64,000 bases of DNA from a virus. The notes beneath the pieces are model-generated. The model worked only from the letters and a program-made list of their open reading frames with translations, was not told the origin of the DNA and ran no database searches. Shown here piece by piece: positions 3,502 to 48,728 of the stretch; the first letter of the stretch is position 1, and each line of letters opens with the position of its first letter. Position numbers and translations under genes: made by a program. The DNA lies in IMG/VR virus record IMGVR_UViG_3300037961_005793, positions 1-64,000 of that record; one strand, 5' to 3'.

Positions 3502-3621
3502 TTAGCGTCCCTGACCCCGCAATTTTTTCTTACCTTTACGCTTAGGACGAGAGTTAGTTCCTTGCCCTTGGCAAGTCGTTTTCGGACGTGAAGCGATGTA
3601 GTTGCCGTTTTTGGATGCCAT
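3502..3621 (-). CDS. Small basic protein of the cyanophage ...RGQG type
   Basis: MASKNGNYIASRPKTTCQGQGTNSRPKRKGKKKLRGQGR (39 aa); TAATAT 21 nt upstream. Confidence 0.7.
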   Translation of the reverse strand: MASKNGNYIASRPKTTCQGQGTNSRPKRKGKKKLRGQGR

Positions 3622-3645
3622 GAGTTTGGAACGAGCGCCCTGATA

Positions 3646-4452
3646 TTAGGTGCTAATCCAGGAAGTGCCATTCCAAACTTTAAGTGCTGAATCAATCGTG
3701 TCGTACCAACCAGCACCTGCGACGGGAGGACTCGGAGGAGCTGCACCGTACGCAACACTGCGCTGAGGTCCAGTCTCATACCAACCACTTGTAGTCTCGT
3801 CGTAAACAAACAGAGAGCCCACAAGCTGGTTAAACCAGATGTTTCCGTGACGAGGAGGTGCGTTGAGGTTATCTCCCGAGGGAGGAATATCGCTCATAAG
3901 AGCAATACCTTCTGCGTTGGTTTGATACCAAGCACCTGAAGCACCTGCAACTCCAGACACAAACACAAACAAGCGACCTTGGTTTGTATCGAACCAAGCG
4001 TCCCCGTTATTGTGTGCTCCGTCTCCTGGTGAGCCGGAAGCAACGATGGTTCCTCCAGTTGAGGCAGAACCACTGATGACTGCAGTATTTCCGTCGTAGT
4101 TAAGGGAAACAGATCCCTCAGCCCGAGCATCTAAATTAAATAAGACAAGATCACCGCTGATCGAAGCATATAAACCAGAACCAGGAGCAACGCCTGAAGT
4201 GACAATAGGGCTTCCTCCGCCGCCCTGAATACCACTAGCAGTAAGGTTCAAATCTTCTAAAGCCCTTACTATGCCTTCGAAGTTATAGGGATATCCGTAA
4301 GGACAGCGAGAAAAAGAGGTAGTGCCCACGCCAGAAATCGTGTCGATTATTTCCTCGATAACGGTGACGATACCGAAAAAATTGTGCGGATGTAACGCCC
4401 TAGGAGGTGCCCCATGTAAAGGACACGGAGGCGAATTTACTTCTTCGGGCAT
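3646..4452 (-). CDS. Virion structural/tail protein
   Basis: Three G-x-x-W-[FY]-[DN]...L-x-V-x...W repeats; GGAGG RBS and TAGAAT upstream. Confidence 0.7.
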   Translation of the reverse strand: MPEEVNSPPCPLHGAPPRALHPHNFFGIVTVIEEIIDTISGVGTTSFSRCPYGYPYNFEGIVRALEDLNLTASGIQGGGGSPIVTSGVAPGSGLYASISGDLVLFNLDARAEGSVSLNYDGNTAVISGSASTGGTIVASGSPGDGAHNNGDAWFDTNQGRLFVFVSGVAGASGAWYQTNAEGIALMSDIPPSGDNLNAPPRHGNIWFNQLVGSLFVYDETTSGWYETGPQRSVAYGAAPPSPPVAGAGWYDTIDSALKVWNGTSWIST

Positions 4453-41324: not shown

Positions 41325-43546
41325 TAGCGTCCAAAGATGAGTTCACTAAGACCAAACTCACCGCGCCGTGGATTAAACCGTTCTCCAGCTAAATCAGTCC
41401 TGAACTGAATCTCATCCCTGAACTTCTGAAGACCACTCCGAGGCTCAGCAATACCCAGAGTTGGGATGGGTTCTGGCTTTGTAGGAATCTCGTAAGGTTT
41501 ATCTGCTAAACCAGTCCTCTGTCGAGTCCCTAAAAATTGACGCAACTTAGGAGCAATGCCTTCACCCGTCTCTTGGCGCACCGCTTCATCCGCTGCTTCC
41601 ACAGCTGCAGAACCAATTAAACCTAAACCAACACCAGGAGCCAAAGGAGCAACTGCAGGATTAGCTAAAACTGGTGTTAGTGCGGCAGAAACAGGTAAAC
41701 CAGCAACAAAATCCTGTGCCATTTGTTTACCCATTGCTTCAGGTCCCTGCTCATAACCTGCGCGAACAGCTTCAGCACTAGGAATCAGATCAGCAACACC
41801 AGGCGCAAGAGAAGAAGGTGTGCGTCGAATGTCCTTAGCTAAGTTAGCTAAGTTATCGGGCGTTACACCAGGAACTAAGGTTGAATAAAATCTTGGCTGA
41901 GAACTATAAGGAGCCGCAGGTCTAGAAAAAGCTCCTTGCTCATCGACAAGAACACGACCAACTAACGGACTTTCAGGAGGTTCCATTTGAAGAGGAACCG
42001 CGTTGCCTTCTATATCGATGTATGTAAGCTGATCACCTTGTCTAGAAACAGGACCGTAACCAGCCAAAGTGTATGCCTTCCCTCTAATAGAAGGAGCAAA
42101 AACATTCTTAGCTTCAAACGGTGCAGCTGATCTTAAGTAACTACTTGTCTTTTCATCTAAACCCTGCTCCCTAGCTCTCTCAAGTAAGTCTGTGTTATCC
42201 ATCGGATGGTTATAAAGCATCGATCCTGCTCGTCTATCAGCCATCGATGCTTCTTGCACGTAACGCATAATCGGACGCTTCATATTCTCAGGCAAATCTT
42301 CTAGGGTCGTATAAGACATCTCCTCCCCAGGAGTTCCAATTTTGAACAACACATCTTGTGCTACATAACCGGGGTTATCTTTCAAGAACCTAACTACGTT
42401 TCTTGATACTGGATAATCCTCAGGTATTGATTCAAGATCTTCGAGACGATTTCGATTAACCCCCCTACCCACGCTGACTTTGTAGCCGTCTGCGTCGAAC
42501 TCATCGATTTCATCAATAAACTCTGTGGGAGAATAAAAAGTTCTTTCTGTATCTGTGTAATATTCAGGTCGATTTATTCCTGGAAACTCTCTTTCAAGCA
42601 AGTCCCCAGTTCTAAAATCCATATTCCTCAAAAATTCATCTACGTCCGAAGCCCTCTGTCTGATGTATTTAATGTCATCACTTTCTTTAGGTGTTGTATA
42701 CCCACCGCCGCCGATGATTGGTTTTCTTTCCTGAAAAGCAGGTTTTTCGATTAGAGCAATATCAACTCCAAGATCCATCATCTTCTCACGACCAGCCTGC
42801 TGTAACTTGGGGTCTCCTGATGTATACAGCTGCTCTGCTTCCGCTAGTTCTGGGGTGGCATCATAACCATCGTCACCTAAAGACTTAATAACACGGCTAT
42901 AAAGATTTTGACGAGCTGTGGGATCAGAGTATTTTTGTTCTAAATCTGTGTACTGCTTATACTTTTCAAACGACTTAGGGTCAATACGCGAAGCTACTTT
43001 GCCGAAATTTTCTACAGGCAGACGATAAAACGCATCTAATTCAGGATATTTTTGAAGTAAATTACGAAAGCTTTGAACTCCTTGTTGAGTTCTTATATTT
43101 CTTATTTTCTCATTCGAATCAACAATTTGGCTAGATAAACCAGGAATTATTTCTTGATAAACATCTCCTCCTACAAATTCTGAGGTGAAAGGCACCCGAG
43201 TCTCCTGTGGACGCACCCTTTCTTCGTAATCGATTAAGGGTTGACGCCTGTCTGCACGACGAGCATCTGCTCTGCGTCGACCACGGATTTCATTGATAAC
43301 ATCATCACGCCCTTGTTCACCAAGTGCCTCGAACACCTGAGGCAACATAGAACCTCTTATAAAATCTGCCTCATCGAAATATTGCATAGACGAAGAAGCC
43401 TCTGGACTCAGAGGAAACTGCCTTTGCATCTGCTGTGGGCCTTGACGCGGCGAACTCGCCGGACGATACAAACCCTCTGATTGAGATTCACGACCTCGGT
43501 TTAACTCACGATCAAGAAATTTATATCCGTACTCAGGAGCAGGCAC
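41324..43546 (-). CDS. Large putative internal virion protein
   Basis: 740 aa, hydrophobic Gly/Ala segment near the C-terminus; TAAAAT 22 nt upstream. Confidence 0.7.
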   Translation of the reverse strand: MPAPEYGYKFLDRELNRGRESQSEGLYRPASSPRQGPQQMQRQFPLSPEASSSMQYFDEADFIRGSMLPQVFEALGEQGRDDVINEIRGRRRADARRADRRQPLIDYEERVRPQETRVPFTSEFVGGDVYQEIIPGLSSQIVDSNEKIRNIRTQQGVQSFRNLLQKYPELDAFYRLPVENFGKVASRIDPKSFEKYKQYTDLEQKYSDPTARQNLYSRVIKSLGDDGYDATPELAEAEQLYTSGDPKLQQAGREKMMDLGVDIALIEKPAFQERKPIIGGGGYTTPKESDDIKYIRQRASDVDEFLRNMDFRTGDLLEREFPGINRPEYYTDTERTFYSPTEFIDEIDEFDADGYKVSVGRGVNRNRLEDLESIPEDYPVSRNVVRFLKDNPGYVAQDVLFKIGTPGEEMSYTTLEDLPENMKRPIMRYVQEASMADRRAGSMLYNHPMDNTDLLERAREQGLDEKTSSYLRSAAPFEAKNVFAPSIRGKAYTLAGYGPVSRQGDQLTYIDIEGNAVPLQMEPPESPLVGRVLVDEQGAFSRPAAPYSSQPRFYSTLVPGVTPDNLANLAKDIRRTPSSLAPGVADLIPSAEAVRAGYEQGPEAMGKQMAQDFVAGLPVSAALTPVLANPAVAPLAPGVGLGLIGSAAVEAADEAVRQETGEGIAPKLRQFLGTRQRTGLADKPYEIPTKPEPIPTLGIAEPRSGLQKFRDEIQFRTDLAGERFNPRRGEFGLSELIFGR

Positions 43547-43656
43547 TTTACTTACCGCACTTTTATCTATTTTAAACCGTATTTATAAACTACCTGCCTC
43601 CACGGGGTGCTATATTTGCGGCTTGCACAGCGCACCGTTTTTTCTTGAACAACTCC

Positions 43657-43980
43657 ATGATGATTATCGAGATCTACAGGCACCATGGCACATGGGCTTT
43701 CACTGATCCCTACAAAGGACTTGAAAACGAACCGTTTGTGGCGGGCATACCGGAAATCATCGACGAATTCATCGAAAAATTCAGTGACAAGACCCAAGAG
43801 ACGCACCGAATCACCTTTTCTTCGTCTGATTTCCCTGGTTCACACGGGAAACTAACCAAAACAAACCCCGAACAAGGAGGTGCTTGGTACAAATACGGCA
43901 AAAAAGAAGGTTGGTTGTGTCCGGCCACGCTGCACTACTTCCCAGAACACCCTGAGGAGCTTTTCGTACGGTTTAGCTAG
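43657..43980 (+). CDS. DUF6717-like protein
   Basis: TWAFTD...EPFVAG...GWLCPA..HYF. Confidence 0.7.
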   Translation: MMIIEIYRHHGTWAFTDPYKGLENEPFVAGIPEIIDEFIEKFSDKTQETHRITFSSSDFPGSHGKLTKTNPEQGGAWYKYGKKEGWLCPATLHYFPEHPEELFVRFS

Positions 43981-44419
43981 CCTGATTTTTTTTCAGGCCG
44001 CTGTTATTATATTGCTACCCTAGAACTTTTACCCCCAAAATACCTAGAAGATACCCAGACCCTTCTCGCCCACGCCGTCGTATATGTCAAATAAGTAAAA
44101 AAAGGCAACATTGCGGGGTGCCGGGGAGGGGGGATAAGTATACCTTATGGATAAATGTAGTAAGGGGTAGTGTGACTTGGTGGGGGAGTCTCCTCCTATC
44201 ATTGTTTCAATTGGTGAACCACGGTGGGGTGGTGTGATACAATCGCGCACGCGCACGCAGTTCCTCTTAGTTACAAGGAGCGAACACAATGTGCCAATCA
44301 CATCTCCGCACACCATTCTCACCAACGTCACCGGATCCGTGGTCTACTTAATGGTGTCGAAGGGAGAGCGAGGCATGAGACCTCAGCACCGGAGACAATC
44401 TTCGAACTGTCACCAGTTC

Positions 44420-44448
44420 TTGCCGAGTTCGGCACAATCCCGTAACTT
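44420..44448 (+). promoter_or_regulatory. Sigma70-type early promoter
   Basis: TTGCCG-N17-TAACTT. Confidence 0.6.
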
Positions 44449-44457
44449 GGTTCACAA

Positions 44458-45047
44458 GTCAGGCAACTGACCCACAATCCAACCAGCTTTGTTCAGTCCT
44501 TCGGGACATGTAACTAAGGCAGAACCTCGACAATCGAATCAGGATTAGCTAAGGGCAAAGGAGTTCCTCCTCCCTGGTGTGGCAATTGCCTCGCTTTAGT
44601 TATCTCCTGCTCTTCTTAATAGTTATGTGCCAGGTGTGTAGGGATAGCCTGCACTGCCACACGTCCGGCGTTCCGGTGTGGAGGGTGAACAGTAATGTTC
44701 TGATCGGCGGAATCGTCCGAGCCCAGCAGCACAGTTTTTAGTTACCTTCCCCATACAGGCGTGGTGTCTCTGTACATCAGGCCCCAGGGGGAAAGCTTCC
44801 TATCCTCATTTTGCTTCAGACCATACAATTTAATACTTTTGACATCATTTTGTGCGCTTTATGCGCTCTTTTTTGTTTTTGCTGGGTAGGGTTGACTTAT
44901 GTCTAAGGGTTTGCAGTCTTGTAGTACCCATAGATACAGCAGCTCTACCTCAGTTTATGTTGTGATCATCCGTGATCATGACCTTTTCTGGAGTTTATGA
45001 ATCCTCCCATGAGCCTTTTCGGTTCATTGAAGGACTCTAATCCTTCA
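44458..45047 (+). ncRNA. Candidate long structured leader / ncRNA array
   Basis: Successive hairpins and multibranch domains with GNRA/UUCG loops and plus-strand G-U pairs; no credible ORF. Confidence 0.55.
44486..44534 (+). promoter_or_regulatory. boxB hairpin plus boxA-like antitermination element
   Basis: UUCG hairpin followed by AGAACCTCGACAA, resembling the cyanobacterial rrn boxA GAACCTTGA(A/C)AA. Confidence 0.5.
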
Positions 45048-45073
45048 CCAATTGTTCTACGTTCATTCCAAAC

Positions 45074-45409
45074 ATGCGTAAGATCGAAACTCTCATGAAC
45101 AAAGCCCTCATTAACAGCAAGAACTGGAAACTTGCAAACACTGAGGTTACTTTCGACCAAGAATCTGGTCACTCTCGTGTATATCTACATGGCAACCACA
45201 TTGCCACCCTTGGTGAAACCTTCCTCACAATTACAGACGCTGGGTATCAAACAAGGACCACAAAGTCACGACTAAATGCAATCATCCGCACATTTTGTTT
45301 CGAGGGTGAGAGTATTTATCAGAAACGTGGCGAGTGGTTTGTGAAGAAGCAAACAGTAGATGGTAAAGACTTTGAGAACATTCCTTTTTACGGTACTTAC
45401 ACTTTCTGA
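45074..45409 (+). CDS. Early hypothetical protein (cyanophage family)
   Basis: MRKIE...VYLHGNHIA...TTKSRLNA. Confidence 0.75.
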   Translation: MRKIETLMNKALINSKNWKLANTEVTFDQESGHSRVYLHGNHIATLGETFLTITDAGYQTRTTKSRLNAIIRTFCFEGESIYQKRGEWFVKKQTVDGKDFENIPFYGTYTF

Positions 45410-45414
45410 TAATC

Positions 45415-45744
45415 ATGTCATCTCTCACAATCAAGACAAACAATCATCCACGCCAGCTTATGTCTGGTCTCACGCTAGATCTGCATGTGGGTGAGAAGAA
45501 GGCTGTTGAGATTCGTCAGCAGTTTGATTACCTGAACGACGAAGAATTTGAGAACGAAGACTTCATAACTTACAAAGGTTATACATATGCTATGTGTGAC
45601 TTTATGCGAAACAATGATCATCCTGACAGCGAGTTTGCAAAGTGGGATGGGTATCACGCTGACTCTTATTTCAGCGGAGTTCTTCTCAAATATGTAGAAG
45701 ATTCTGACTACAACGAAGTTATTCTTGCCACCTATTTTTCTTGA
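45415..45744 (+). CDS. Early hypothetical protein
   Basis: IKTNNHPR...WDGYHADSYFSG. Confidence 0.7.
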   Translation: MSSLTIKTNNHPRQLMSGLTLDLHVGEKKAVEIRQQFDYLNDEEFENEDFITYKGYTYAMCDFMRNNDHPDSEFAKWDGYHADSYFSGVLLKYVEDSDYNEVILATYFS

Positions 45745-48667: not shown

Positions 48668-48697
48668 TTGACACCATCTGCATTTTGCTTTTATATT
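48668..48697 (+). promoter_or_regulatory. Sigma70-type promoter
   Basis: TTGACA-N18-TATATT. Confidence 0.65.
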
Positions 48698-48728
48698 GCC
48701 AACGTTGGCACAATCCCATCAAAACAAC

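Follow-up and report, generated by a model that had tools for sequence, protein, structure and literature searches.

The sequence under analysis, referred to below as the window, covers bases 1-64000 (64,000 nt) of an 80,883-bp IMG/VR virus record that is rated complete. In this window, the late genes are read leftward from position 43546, and a small gene of the DUF6717 family, with a terminator-like hairpin at its end, lies on the plus strand at 43645-43980. A rightward run of small plus-strand early genes begins at 45074 and encodes, in order, a Kyano_Gp96 homologue, a dCTP deaminase, MoxR/VWA proteins and a family A DNA polymerase. Between 43981 and 45073 no credible gene was found, and the small open reading frames of this gap (33-54 aa) are conserved neither in the related contig L003 nor in clade B of the relatives. 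In related phages, the gene-free stretch measures about 0.76-0.93 kb and ends just before the first plus-strand early gene; this gene differs between lineages, and the element always ends just before it.

The nearest isolate to the phage is Synechococcus phage S-EIV1, whose large terminase (TerL) is 45% identical to that of the window, and no closer relative was found among cultured phages by this protein. A neighbouring gene of 740 aa was without match among cultured phages. The phage probably belongs to the uncultured marine lineage reported in bioRxiv 10.1101/325100, although no tyrosine integrase is present in the 80.9-kb record. The pattern of the 5' block had 0 matches in bacterial and archaeal genomes, which thus gave no prophage lead. 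Viral and metagenome contigs were scanned by protein and by pattern, which yielded about 17 distinct regions of homology, all from uncultured marine phages; the pattern match L007 was discarded as a chance hit inside a coding region. In one relative (L005, 1893-4331), about 2.4 kb are inserted between the DUF6717 gene and the upstream block, and the first early gene is unlike that of the window. Some contigs came from libraries labelled 'METAGENOMIC RNA-Seq' (runs X1-X3), which cover phage genes and gaps evenly, as DNA would; the tables of X1 and X2 are identical and are probably one data set filed twice. Among the runs registered as RNA, none contained the region. Since the contigs of the four runs used cover coding and non-coding sequence alike, they are uninformative on expression.

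The gap opens with the most sequence-conserved part of the region across all lineages (43999-44215), which has a folding z-score of about 0: its segment 44015-44215, used as a non-coding control, gave 0.0 on the plus strand and +1.4 on the minus strand. The pattern of this block was matched in 20 viral contigs, and in all relatives it contains AAGATACCNANACCCTTCTCGCCC followed by an A-run. It is probably promoter-upstream or regulatory DNA, or else a short unstructured transcript. Two features were observed within it: at 44002-10 the sequence TG-T-TATTAT, a candidate extended -10 element, and at 44182-44210 a G/C hairpin that covaries and carries a U-rich tail. The latter overlaps the candidate promoter P1, whose spacer consists of the conserved G/C hairpin (44182-96) and then a U-rich run; P1 may therefore be the terminator of an upstream transcript instead.

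Immediately downstream lies P2, of which the extended -10 sequence reads TGATACAAT (44235-43). The pattern TGnTAnAAT is kept in all lineages, and in L011 and L005 it is accompanied by a -35 box TTGACG. Transcription would start near 44250. Internal TTGAC words (44527 in relatives, 44840 and 44893) were considered as further -35 boxes and rejected, because no usable -10 was seen downstream by eye; no antisense promoter of note was found in the region. The predicted start site carries an alternating purine-pyrimidine tract, CGCGCACGCGCACGC (44244-44258), and the same type of tract extends over about 130 nt (GCGTGTGCGCGTGTACATGTGCG...) in L099 (about 3590-3715), L101 and L112, where it would be prone to form Z-DNA. 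In clade B (L095, 2064-2043 in the sense direction), a G/C hairpin with a U-rich run, UUUCUUUUUUU, comes right after the -10. It resembles a promoter-proximal terminator or attenuator and is missing from the clade of the window.

The first-pass annotation of this DNA had described 44458-45047 as an array of discrete structured RNA domains. When each of the hairpins and domains that it listed was folded singly, all of them formed as described, with z-scores from -1.9 to -4.8. As a whole, the plus strand of this stretch folded with a minimum free energy (MFE) of -204.7 and a z-score of -6.02 against shuffles, as compared with -2.32 for the minus strand, and an equal-length coding control (45074-45663) gave -1.9. 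Two further lineages behaved likewise, with sense and antisense z-scores of -7.4 and -4.0 for L099 and of -5.6 and -2.1 for L095 (20 shuffles each). Pair tables confirmed that the wobbles are G-U on the plus strand throughout, and the U-rich linkers between the domains are visible in the sequence. The proposed boundaries had to be revised: the 5' limit of the unit lies about 200 nt ahead of the flagged stretch, near 44250, and the segment from there to 44457 has a z-score of -2.5. We infer that the unit runs from the extended -10 promoter to the last hairpin, H6, which ends 27 nt before the ATG at 45074. The flagged stretch would thus make up most of an untranslated RNA of about 0.8 kb, conserved and heavily folded, with which the early genes begin. 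The domain array that had been proposed is accordingly upheld as conserved, strand-specific and placed directly 3' of a conserved promoter of the sigma-70 type, where the early operon starts. The features are collected in Table 1.

Table 1. Features of the gap and of the putative leader, in 5' to 3' order (window coordinates).
Feature	Position	Strand	Evidence and remarks
Sequence-conserved upstream block	43999..44215	+	Alignments; includes AAGATACCCAGACCCTTCTCGCCC (44048-71) and an A7 run (44098-104)
P1, candidate promoter, TGACTT-N18-TATCAT	44173..44202	+	Prediction only
P2, putative extended -10 promoter	44214..44243	+	TG 44235-36, TACAAT 44238-43, weak -35 GTGAAC
5' hairpin domain	44251..44294	+	z -2.1; outer helix GCGCA/UGUGC, inner hairpin presenting UUAGUUAC, then conserved GUGCCAAUC
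Variable cassette V1	44283..44478	+	Exchanged between related phages (run X6 contig)
GNRA hairpin, GUCAG-GCAA-CUGAC	44458..44471	+	z -3.7; loops GCAA/GUAA/GCGA; stem U-A to C-G covariation
boxB-like long hairpin, UNCG tetraloop (UUCG, 44500-03)	44486..44520	+	z -3.0; loops UUCG/UCCG
boxA-like single strand, AGAACCTCGACAATCGAA	44521..44538	+	Comparison with host boxA; core GAACCTCGACAA at 44522-33
Variable cassette V2 (window type)	44535..44738	+	Folds; branched domain 44540-609 and multiway domain 44626-733; same type in L105
Nested hairpin domain, UUCCCC...GGGGGAA	44747..44793	+	z -2.8; GGC/GCC to GAC/GUC in L009
T1, terminator-like: short G+C hairpin (44852-66) and long U-tract	44852..44880	+	Retained by both clade A and clade B; G-C to A-U changes
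Rod of about 28 bp, candidate RNase III substrate	44882..44953	+	z -4.8; conserved with covariation
GATC hairpin, terminator-like here	44959..44982	+	Terminator scan and homologues; invariant inner stem GAUCA/UGAUC, free loop
Terminal hairpins H4 (44990-45007, tentative), H5 (45009-27), H6 (45028-47)	44990..45047	+	Covariance model, 13 lineages
First early gene, Kyano_Gp96 family	45074..45409	+	Pfam PF23790, E 2.6e-40; outside the RNA element, sets its 3' limit

Within cassette V2, the branched domain has a z-score of -3.45 and the multiway domain, closed by UGUGC/GCACA and containing GAACA-GUAA-UGUUC, one of -1.9; the four hairpins of 44955-45047 together reach -4.2. Two further hairpins of the region, hC1 (44404-19) and a 3-bp hairpin at 44447-57, were not conserved. 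A terminator scan of the window downstream of the boxA-like strand returned two sites, 44852-80 and 44959-82, both with short stems; that of T1 has 5-6 bp. In the L099 lineage, T1 is enclosed in a long-range helix with no U-run directly after it and is not a plain terminator, and H6, with its U-rich tail, also looks like a terminator in L099 and L095. An NtcA-type word, GTA-N8-TAC, was noticed in the 3' strand of the rod (44924-44937); it is kept in L009 and L002, and as it is absent from L003 and clade B it is probably incidental. The model built on the 3' domain also gave a weak match elsewhere in the window, at 4097-4171 on the minus strand (15.9 bits, E 0.29), with the hairpin pair CGAUCA-GCGG-UGAUCU and GAGGGA...UCCCUU, which may be due to chance.

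The window was compared with the covariance models of Rfam. At gathering score, or with E up to 10, no family matched the region apart from a chance mir-998 hit (E 3.3); the sole Rfam match in the window is a tRNA-Leu located elsewhere. The 15 homologous loci searched with E up to 1 returned only tRNAs and chance snoRNA matches. Thus, HEARO, OLE, raiA and the riboswitches and ribozymes of Rfam had no covariance-model match at or near the gathering score. GOLLD and ROOL, which are large and ornate, and the cyanophage motifs manA, wcaG and PhotoRC resemble the element as structured non-coding RNAs of phages that are either large or conserved, and it differs from them by the lack of a covariance-model match and by being tied to the start of an operon, modular and mosaic.

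Compensatory changes, on which the first-pass annotation had made its proposal depend, were found in the helices of the homologues. For the GNRA and UNCG hairpins, five sequences in a plain MAFFT alignment gave 95% pairing, with double-sided changes in 6 of 17 pairs, whereas a control with slid partners gave 17-45%; both loops are kept as classes, and the UNCG hairpin by itself shows double-sided changes in 5 of its 12 pairs (five sequences). Over the 3' 240 nt (MAFFT, seven sequences), 88% pairing was found and double changes occurred in 10 of 38 pairs, six of which belong to the rod, where 6 of 13 pairs differ on both sides between clades A and B. For the last 97 nt, a covariance model found matches in 13 lineages, in front of differing first genes. 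In the resulting alignment, which is fitted to its own model and includes four chance rows, 91.7% of the cells were paired and double changes affected 16 of 28 pairs; pairing fell to 79.2% for shuffles and to 34-51% when the partners were slid. Furthermore, pair-keeping changes were observed for the branched domain in L105 and in contigs of runs X1-X3; in the latter, for example, the changes 44582 G>A and 44589 C>T go together, so that one predicted pair is kept.

The conservation of structure is combined with an extensive exchange of sequence. In close relatives, the flanks are 85-94% identical, while unrelated sequence of near-equal length takes the place of the blocks 44283-44478 and 44535-44738; in the contig of run X6, for example, these positions are filled by 224 and 205 letters, where the window has 196 and 204. 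Cassette V2 is swapped for others in L002, L003 and L009, in clade B and in run X6, and in clade B the segment 44745-44835 is replaced too, so that another module occupies the position of the nested hairpin domain. A tile map showed that modules of 100-200 nt are reassorted mosaically among the phages, and each alternative cassette belongs to a strongly folded whole (L099, L095). This exchange fits the picture of discrete domains, without proving that the domains act separately. The replacement of such large parts would also be expected if the region were a functionless spacer, neutral or in decay, whose hairpins arose by chance. We consider this explanation very improbable, given z-scores of -6 to -7 in independent lineages, the compensatory changes, the near-equal lengths of the cassettes (196 vs 224 nt; 204 vs 205 nt) and conservation across about 17 contigs.

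Several short words of the region invite the question of whether it acts mainly as DNA. The palindrome TGATCA-N4-TGATCA (44963-44978), which has its two GATC sites one helical turn apart, occurs only once in the window and does not vary among 13 lineages. A second palindromic hairpin, TGCCGAGTTCGGCA (44421-34), belongs to cassette V1 and is kept as TGCC-N6-GGCA in the leader homologues. Together with its tail it reads TTGCCGAGTTCGGCACAATCCC (44420-44441) and recurs as TTGCCAACGTTGGCACAATCCC (48696-48717) with a pair-keeping G-C to A-T change; the second copy directly follows the -10 of a strong sigma-70-like promoter, TTGACA-18-TATATT (48668-97). This recurring hairpin may be either an operator or the 5'-terminal RNA hairpin of two early transcripts. 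In addition, the word TTAGTTA or its complement occurs at 44267, 44511 (minus strand), 44596 and 44738. Such words lie near the cassette borders in every lineage, and in L099 two double copies form a long-range helix of 14 bp; pairing among the copies of the window had no covariation support.

In a mainly DNA-level role, these palindromes and words would be protein sites, namely operators, Dam/SeqA-type GATC sites or parts of a replication origin with an RNA II-like primer transcript, and the folds would be secondary. The inner 5 bp of the GATC stem agree with this, since they never covary in 13 lineages while the loop is free, which makes a DNA or protein site possible there. So do the exact recurrence of TGCC...GGCA-CAATCCC at the start site of the strong promoter 4.3 kb away, the presence within 44267-44744, in both orientations, of 4 of the 16 TTAGTTA copies of the 64-kb window, and the family A DNA polymerase encoded by the phage. 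On the other hand, most helices covary, three lineages show a strand bias in stability, loops of the GNRA and UNCG classes are features of RNA, and G-U wobbles on one strand are not required by DNA sites. The region has no iterons and the replication genes are 6-15 kb distant; as for a primer of the ColE1 RNA II type, neither a notable antisense promoter nor iterons were found in the region and nothing speaks for it. We therefore regard a mainly DNA-level role as improbable. An RNA immunity of the P4/P1 type, in which one UAACUA word would pair with several UAGUUA words, was also considered and dropped, because the changes in L002 are not compensatory for the pairings 44266-75/44508-17 or 44508-17/44738-45. 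These changes in the UAACUA/UAGUUA words are compensatory for the local hairpin 44486-520.

The single strand that directly follows the UNCG hairpin carries a short motif, GAACCTTGACAA, the one that is kept even in the most distant lineages. It was found exactly (12/12) in eight homologues and with one mismatch in three more, including the window, whose copy CUCGACAA agrees at 11 of 12 positions. Four homologues (L099, L101, L102 and L112) have two copies 150 nt apart, and the most distant lineage is among these carriers. No canonical match within two mismatches was obtained in clade B (L095, L096), L005, L108 or L103; the homologous place reads GGAACCUUAGUUAUC or GUAGUUCCUGGCCC in clade B, L005 and L108, the former being the sequence of L095.

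This motif is the boxA of the host's ribosomal RNA (rrn) loci. The generic boxA of cyanobacterial spacers is GAACCTTGAAAA (PMC8461337), and all marine picocyanobacteria have in their internal transcribed spacer the boxA GAACCTTGACAACTGCATAG, the reverse complement of primer Picocya-boxA-R (PMC9769826). In our own tally, the rrn loci of Synechococcus, Vulcanococcus and Prochlorococcus read GCAGAACCTTGACAACTGCATAG, and the phage GAACCTTGACAA equals the spacer boxA of marine picocyanobacteria. The identity extends beyond the core: the rrn leader of Synechococcus UW140 contains, about 385 nt before the 16S gene, AGAACCTGGACAATCGAA, which matches the window at 17 of 18 positions and L105 at 18 of 18. 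The exact match to the picocyanobacterial variant supports a marine Synechococcus or Prochlorococcus as host. Taken by itself, the one-mismatch copy of the window is not significant in 64 kb, and the weight of the boxA assignment lies in its conservation, its position and the extended identity. As to position, the conserved extended -10 sits 280 nt upstream on the same strand, and the UNCG hairpin, a boxB-type hairpin with compensatory changes, ends 1 nt before boxA in the window. In S-EIV1 no exact boxA was present, and five one-mismatch words were counted against two in a control. A longer word, the 14-mer CAGAACCTTGACAA, was set aside: it occurs in at least 118 viral contigs, a number that chance alone would give by a rough estimate of the collection size. 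In the literature, we found no paper linking boxA to cyanophages.

Among the functions offered by the first-pass annotation, that of an antitermination RNA gained sequence support from this host-type rrn boxA, which follows a boxB-like hairpin and precedes terminator-like hairpins. The order of promoter, folded RNA, boxB-like hairpin and boxA, terminator-like hairpins, rod and gene is the one expected of an rrn/nut-style leader. Our preferred reading, to which we give a probability of about 0.55, is that the region (roughly 44250 to 45073) is an antitermination leader of about 0.8 kb for the rightward early operon of a marine cyanophage related to S-EIV1. The presence of a copy of the host rRNA boxA suggests that the virus probably borrows host machinery for uninterrupted transcription; transcription, Nus binding, antitermination and processing are all predicted from the sequence.

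In such a leader, the host RNA polymerase would start at P2 and transcribe a chain of autonomous hairpin domains. About 270 nt into the transcript, it would pass the boxB-like UNCG hairpin and then the single-stranded host-type boxA which, by analogy with rrn operons and lambda nut, may recruit NusB-NusE(S10) and other Nus factors to the polymerase. Thus modified, the polymerase would run fast and without stopping through the leader, T1 (44852-80) and the site at 44959-82 into the early genes. The 28-bp rod and the three terminal hairpins could be used for RNase III-type processing and could shield the early mRNA at its 5' end, and the variable cassettes would be exchangeable peripheral modules.

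The closest parallel is provided by the cyanobacterial rrn loci, with boxA in the leader and boxB-boxA-D4 in the 16S-23S spacer. The phage shares with them the 12-nt boxA itself, in the form that marine picocyanobacteria have (C at position 10), an identity of up to 17-18 nt with a Synechococcus rrn leader, a hairpin preceding boxA and, if the leader is transcribed as predicted, a long untranslated structured transcript from a sigma-70-type promoter. In contrast to the rrn loci, the phage leader heads protein-coding genes rather than rRNA, its hairpin lies 1-2 nt from boxA instead of the 10-16 nt seen in the host loci that were compared, no D4 (CTGCATA) follows boxA, and some related phages are without the canonical motif.

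Phage use of host Nus factors through boxA is known from lambda. Like lambda nutL and nutR, the element would place a signal recruiting host Nus factors near the start of an early operon, upstream of terminators that are here putative. Unlike in lambda, no N-like protein was found among the first early genes and the host is presumed to be Rho-less; the order is hairpin then boxA, as in rrn, and not boxA then boxB, and the leader is far longer and more folded. The put RNA of HK022 consists of two stem-loops of about 70 nt, has no boxA and needs no Nus factors. By its description, it is comparable as a folded early-leader RNA which, as the phage element could, acts in cis on the polymerase against termination. 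In T7, an RNase III hairpin is found just before the first early gene, and the rod, with its candidate stem of 28 bp, may be an analogue of this R0.3 type of hairpin.

Counting against antitermination are the mismatch in the boxA of the window, the relatives without boxA, the weakness of T1 and the lack of an N-like protein, none with the expected arginine-rich character being seen among the first early genes. To our knowledge, cyanobacteria lack Rho. Nus-boxA complexes without a phage N protein counter Rho and not intrinsic terminators (PMC5725501). The benefit of boxA may thus be speed or RNA folding rather than read-through. The model of an antitermination leader also leaves unexplained why 0.8 kb of folded, swappable modules should be needed.

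A further possibility is that the product itself is the functional entity, as a large stand-alone non-coding RNA of about 620 nt from P2 to T1, perhaps cut into smaller stable RNAs, which would act in trans early in infection. It would be synthesized in the manner of rRNA, with boxA aiding co-transcriptional folding, and read-through past T1 would give the early mRNA. Possible roles are those of a decoy or sponge for host proteins (including NusB/S10), RNases or defence systems. Several observations are consistent with it: clades A and B both conserve, 200 nt ahead of the first gene, a hairpin with a U-tract that resembles a terminator; the domains are autonomous and have stable tetraloops; their modules are exchanged quickly and in a mosaic manner, as loci of host interaction usually are; and rrn-type antitermination complexes are described in PMC8632103 as RNA chaperones for structured RNA. 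T1 is weak, however, and no plain terminator in the L099 lineage. Moreover, the most widely conserved folded part (the GATC hairpin, H5 and H6) lies after T1 and adjoins the first gene whatever its identity, which points to a role in cis. We hold a stand-alone RNA to be a tentative alternative, clearly less probable than the antitermination leader. Slightly more doubtful is its fullest form, in which the product from P2 to T1 is a free modular RNA made like host rRNA and its modules of 100-200 nt act in trans and are exchanged like accessory genes.

The element represents a new and sizeable structured RNA family in an abundant lineage of uncultured marine viruses, and the exchange of its modules, with length and conserved joints kept, is an unusual mode of RNA evolution. 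It could make testable what boxA does in cyanophages of presumed Rho-less hosts. If it acts only in cis, it illustrates the way in which a phage shields and drives a long transcript that is not translated. If its modules act in trans, they would form a new class of early phage RNA effectors and, as decoys, sponges or anti-defence RNAs, would correspond at the RNA level to the cassettes of early anti-defence genes that other phages carry.
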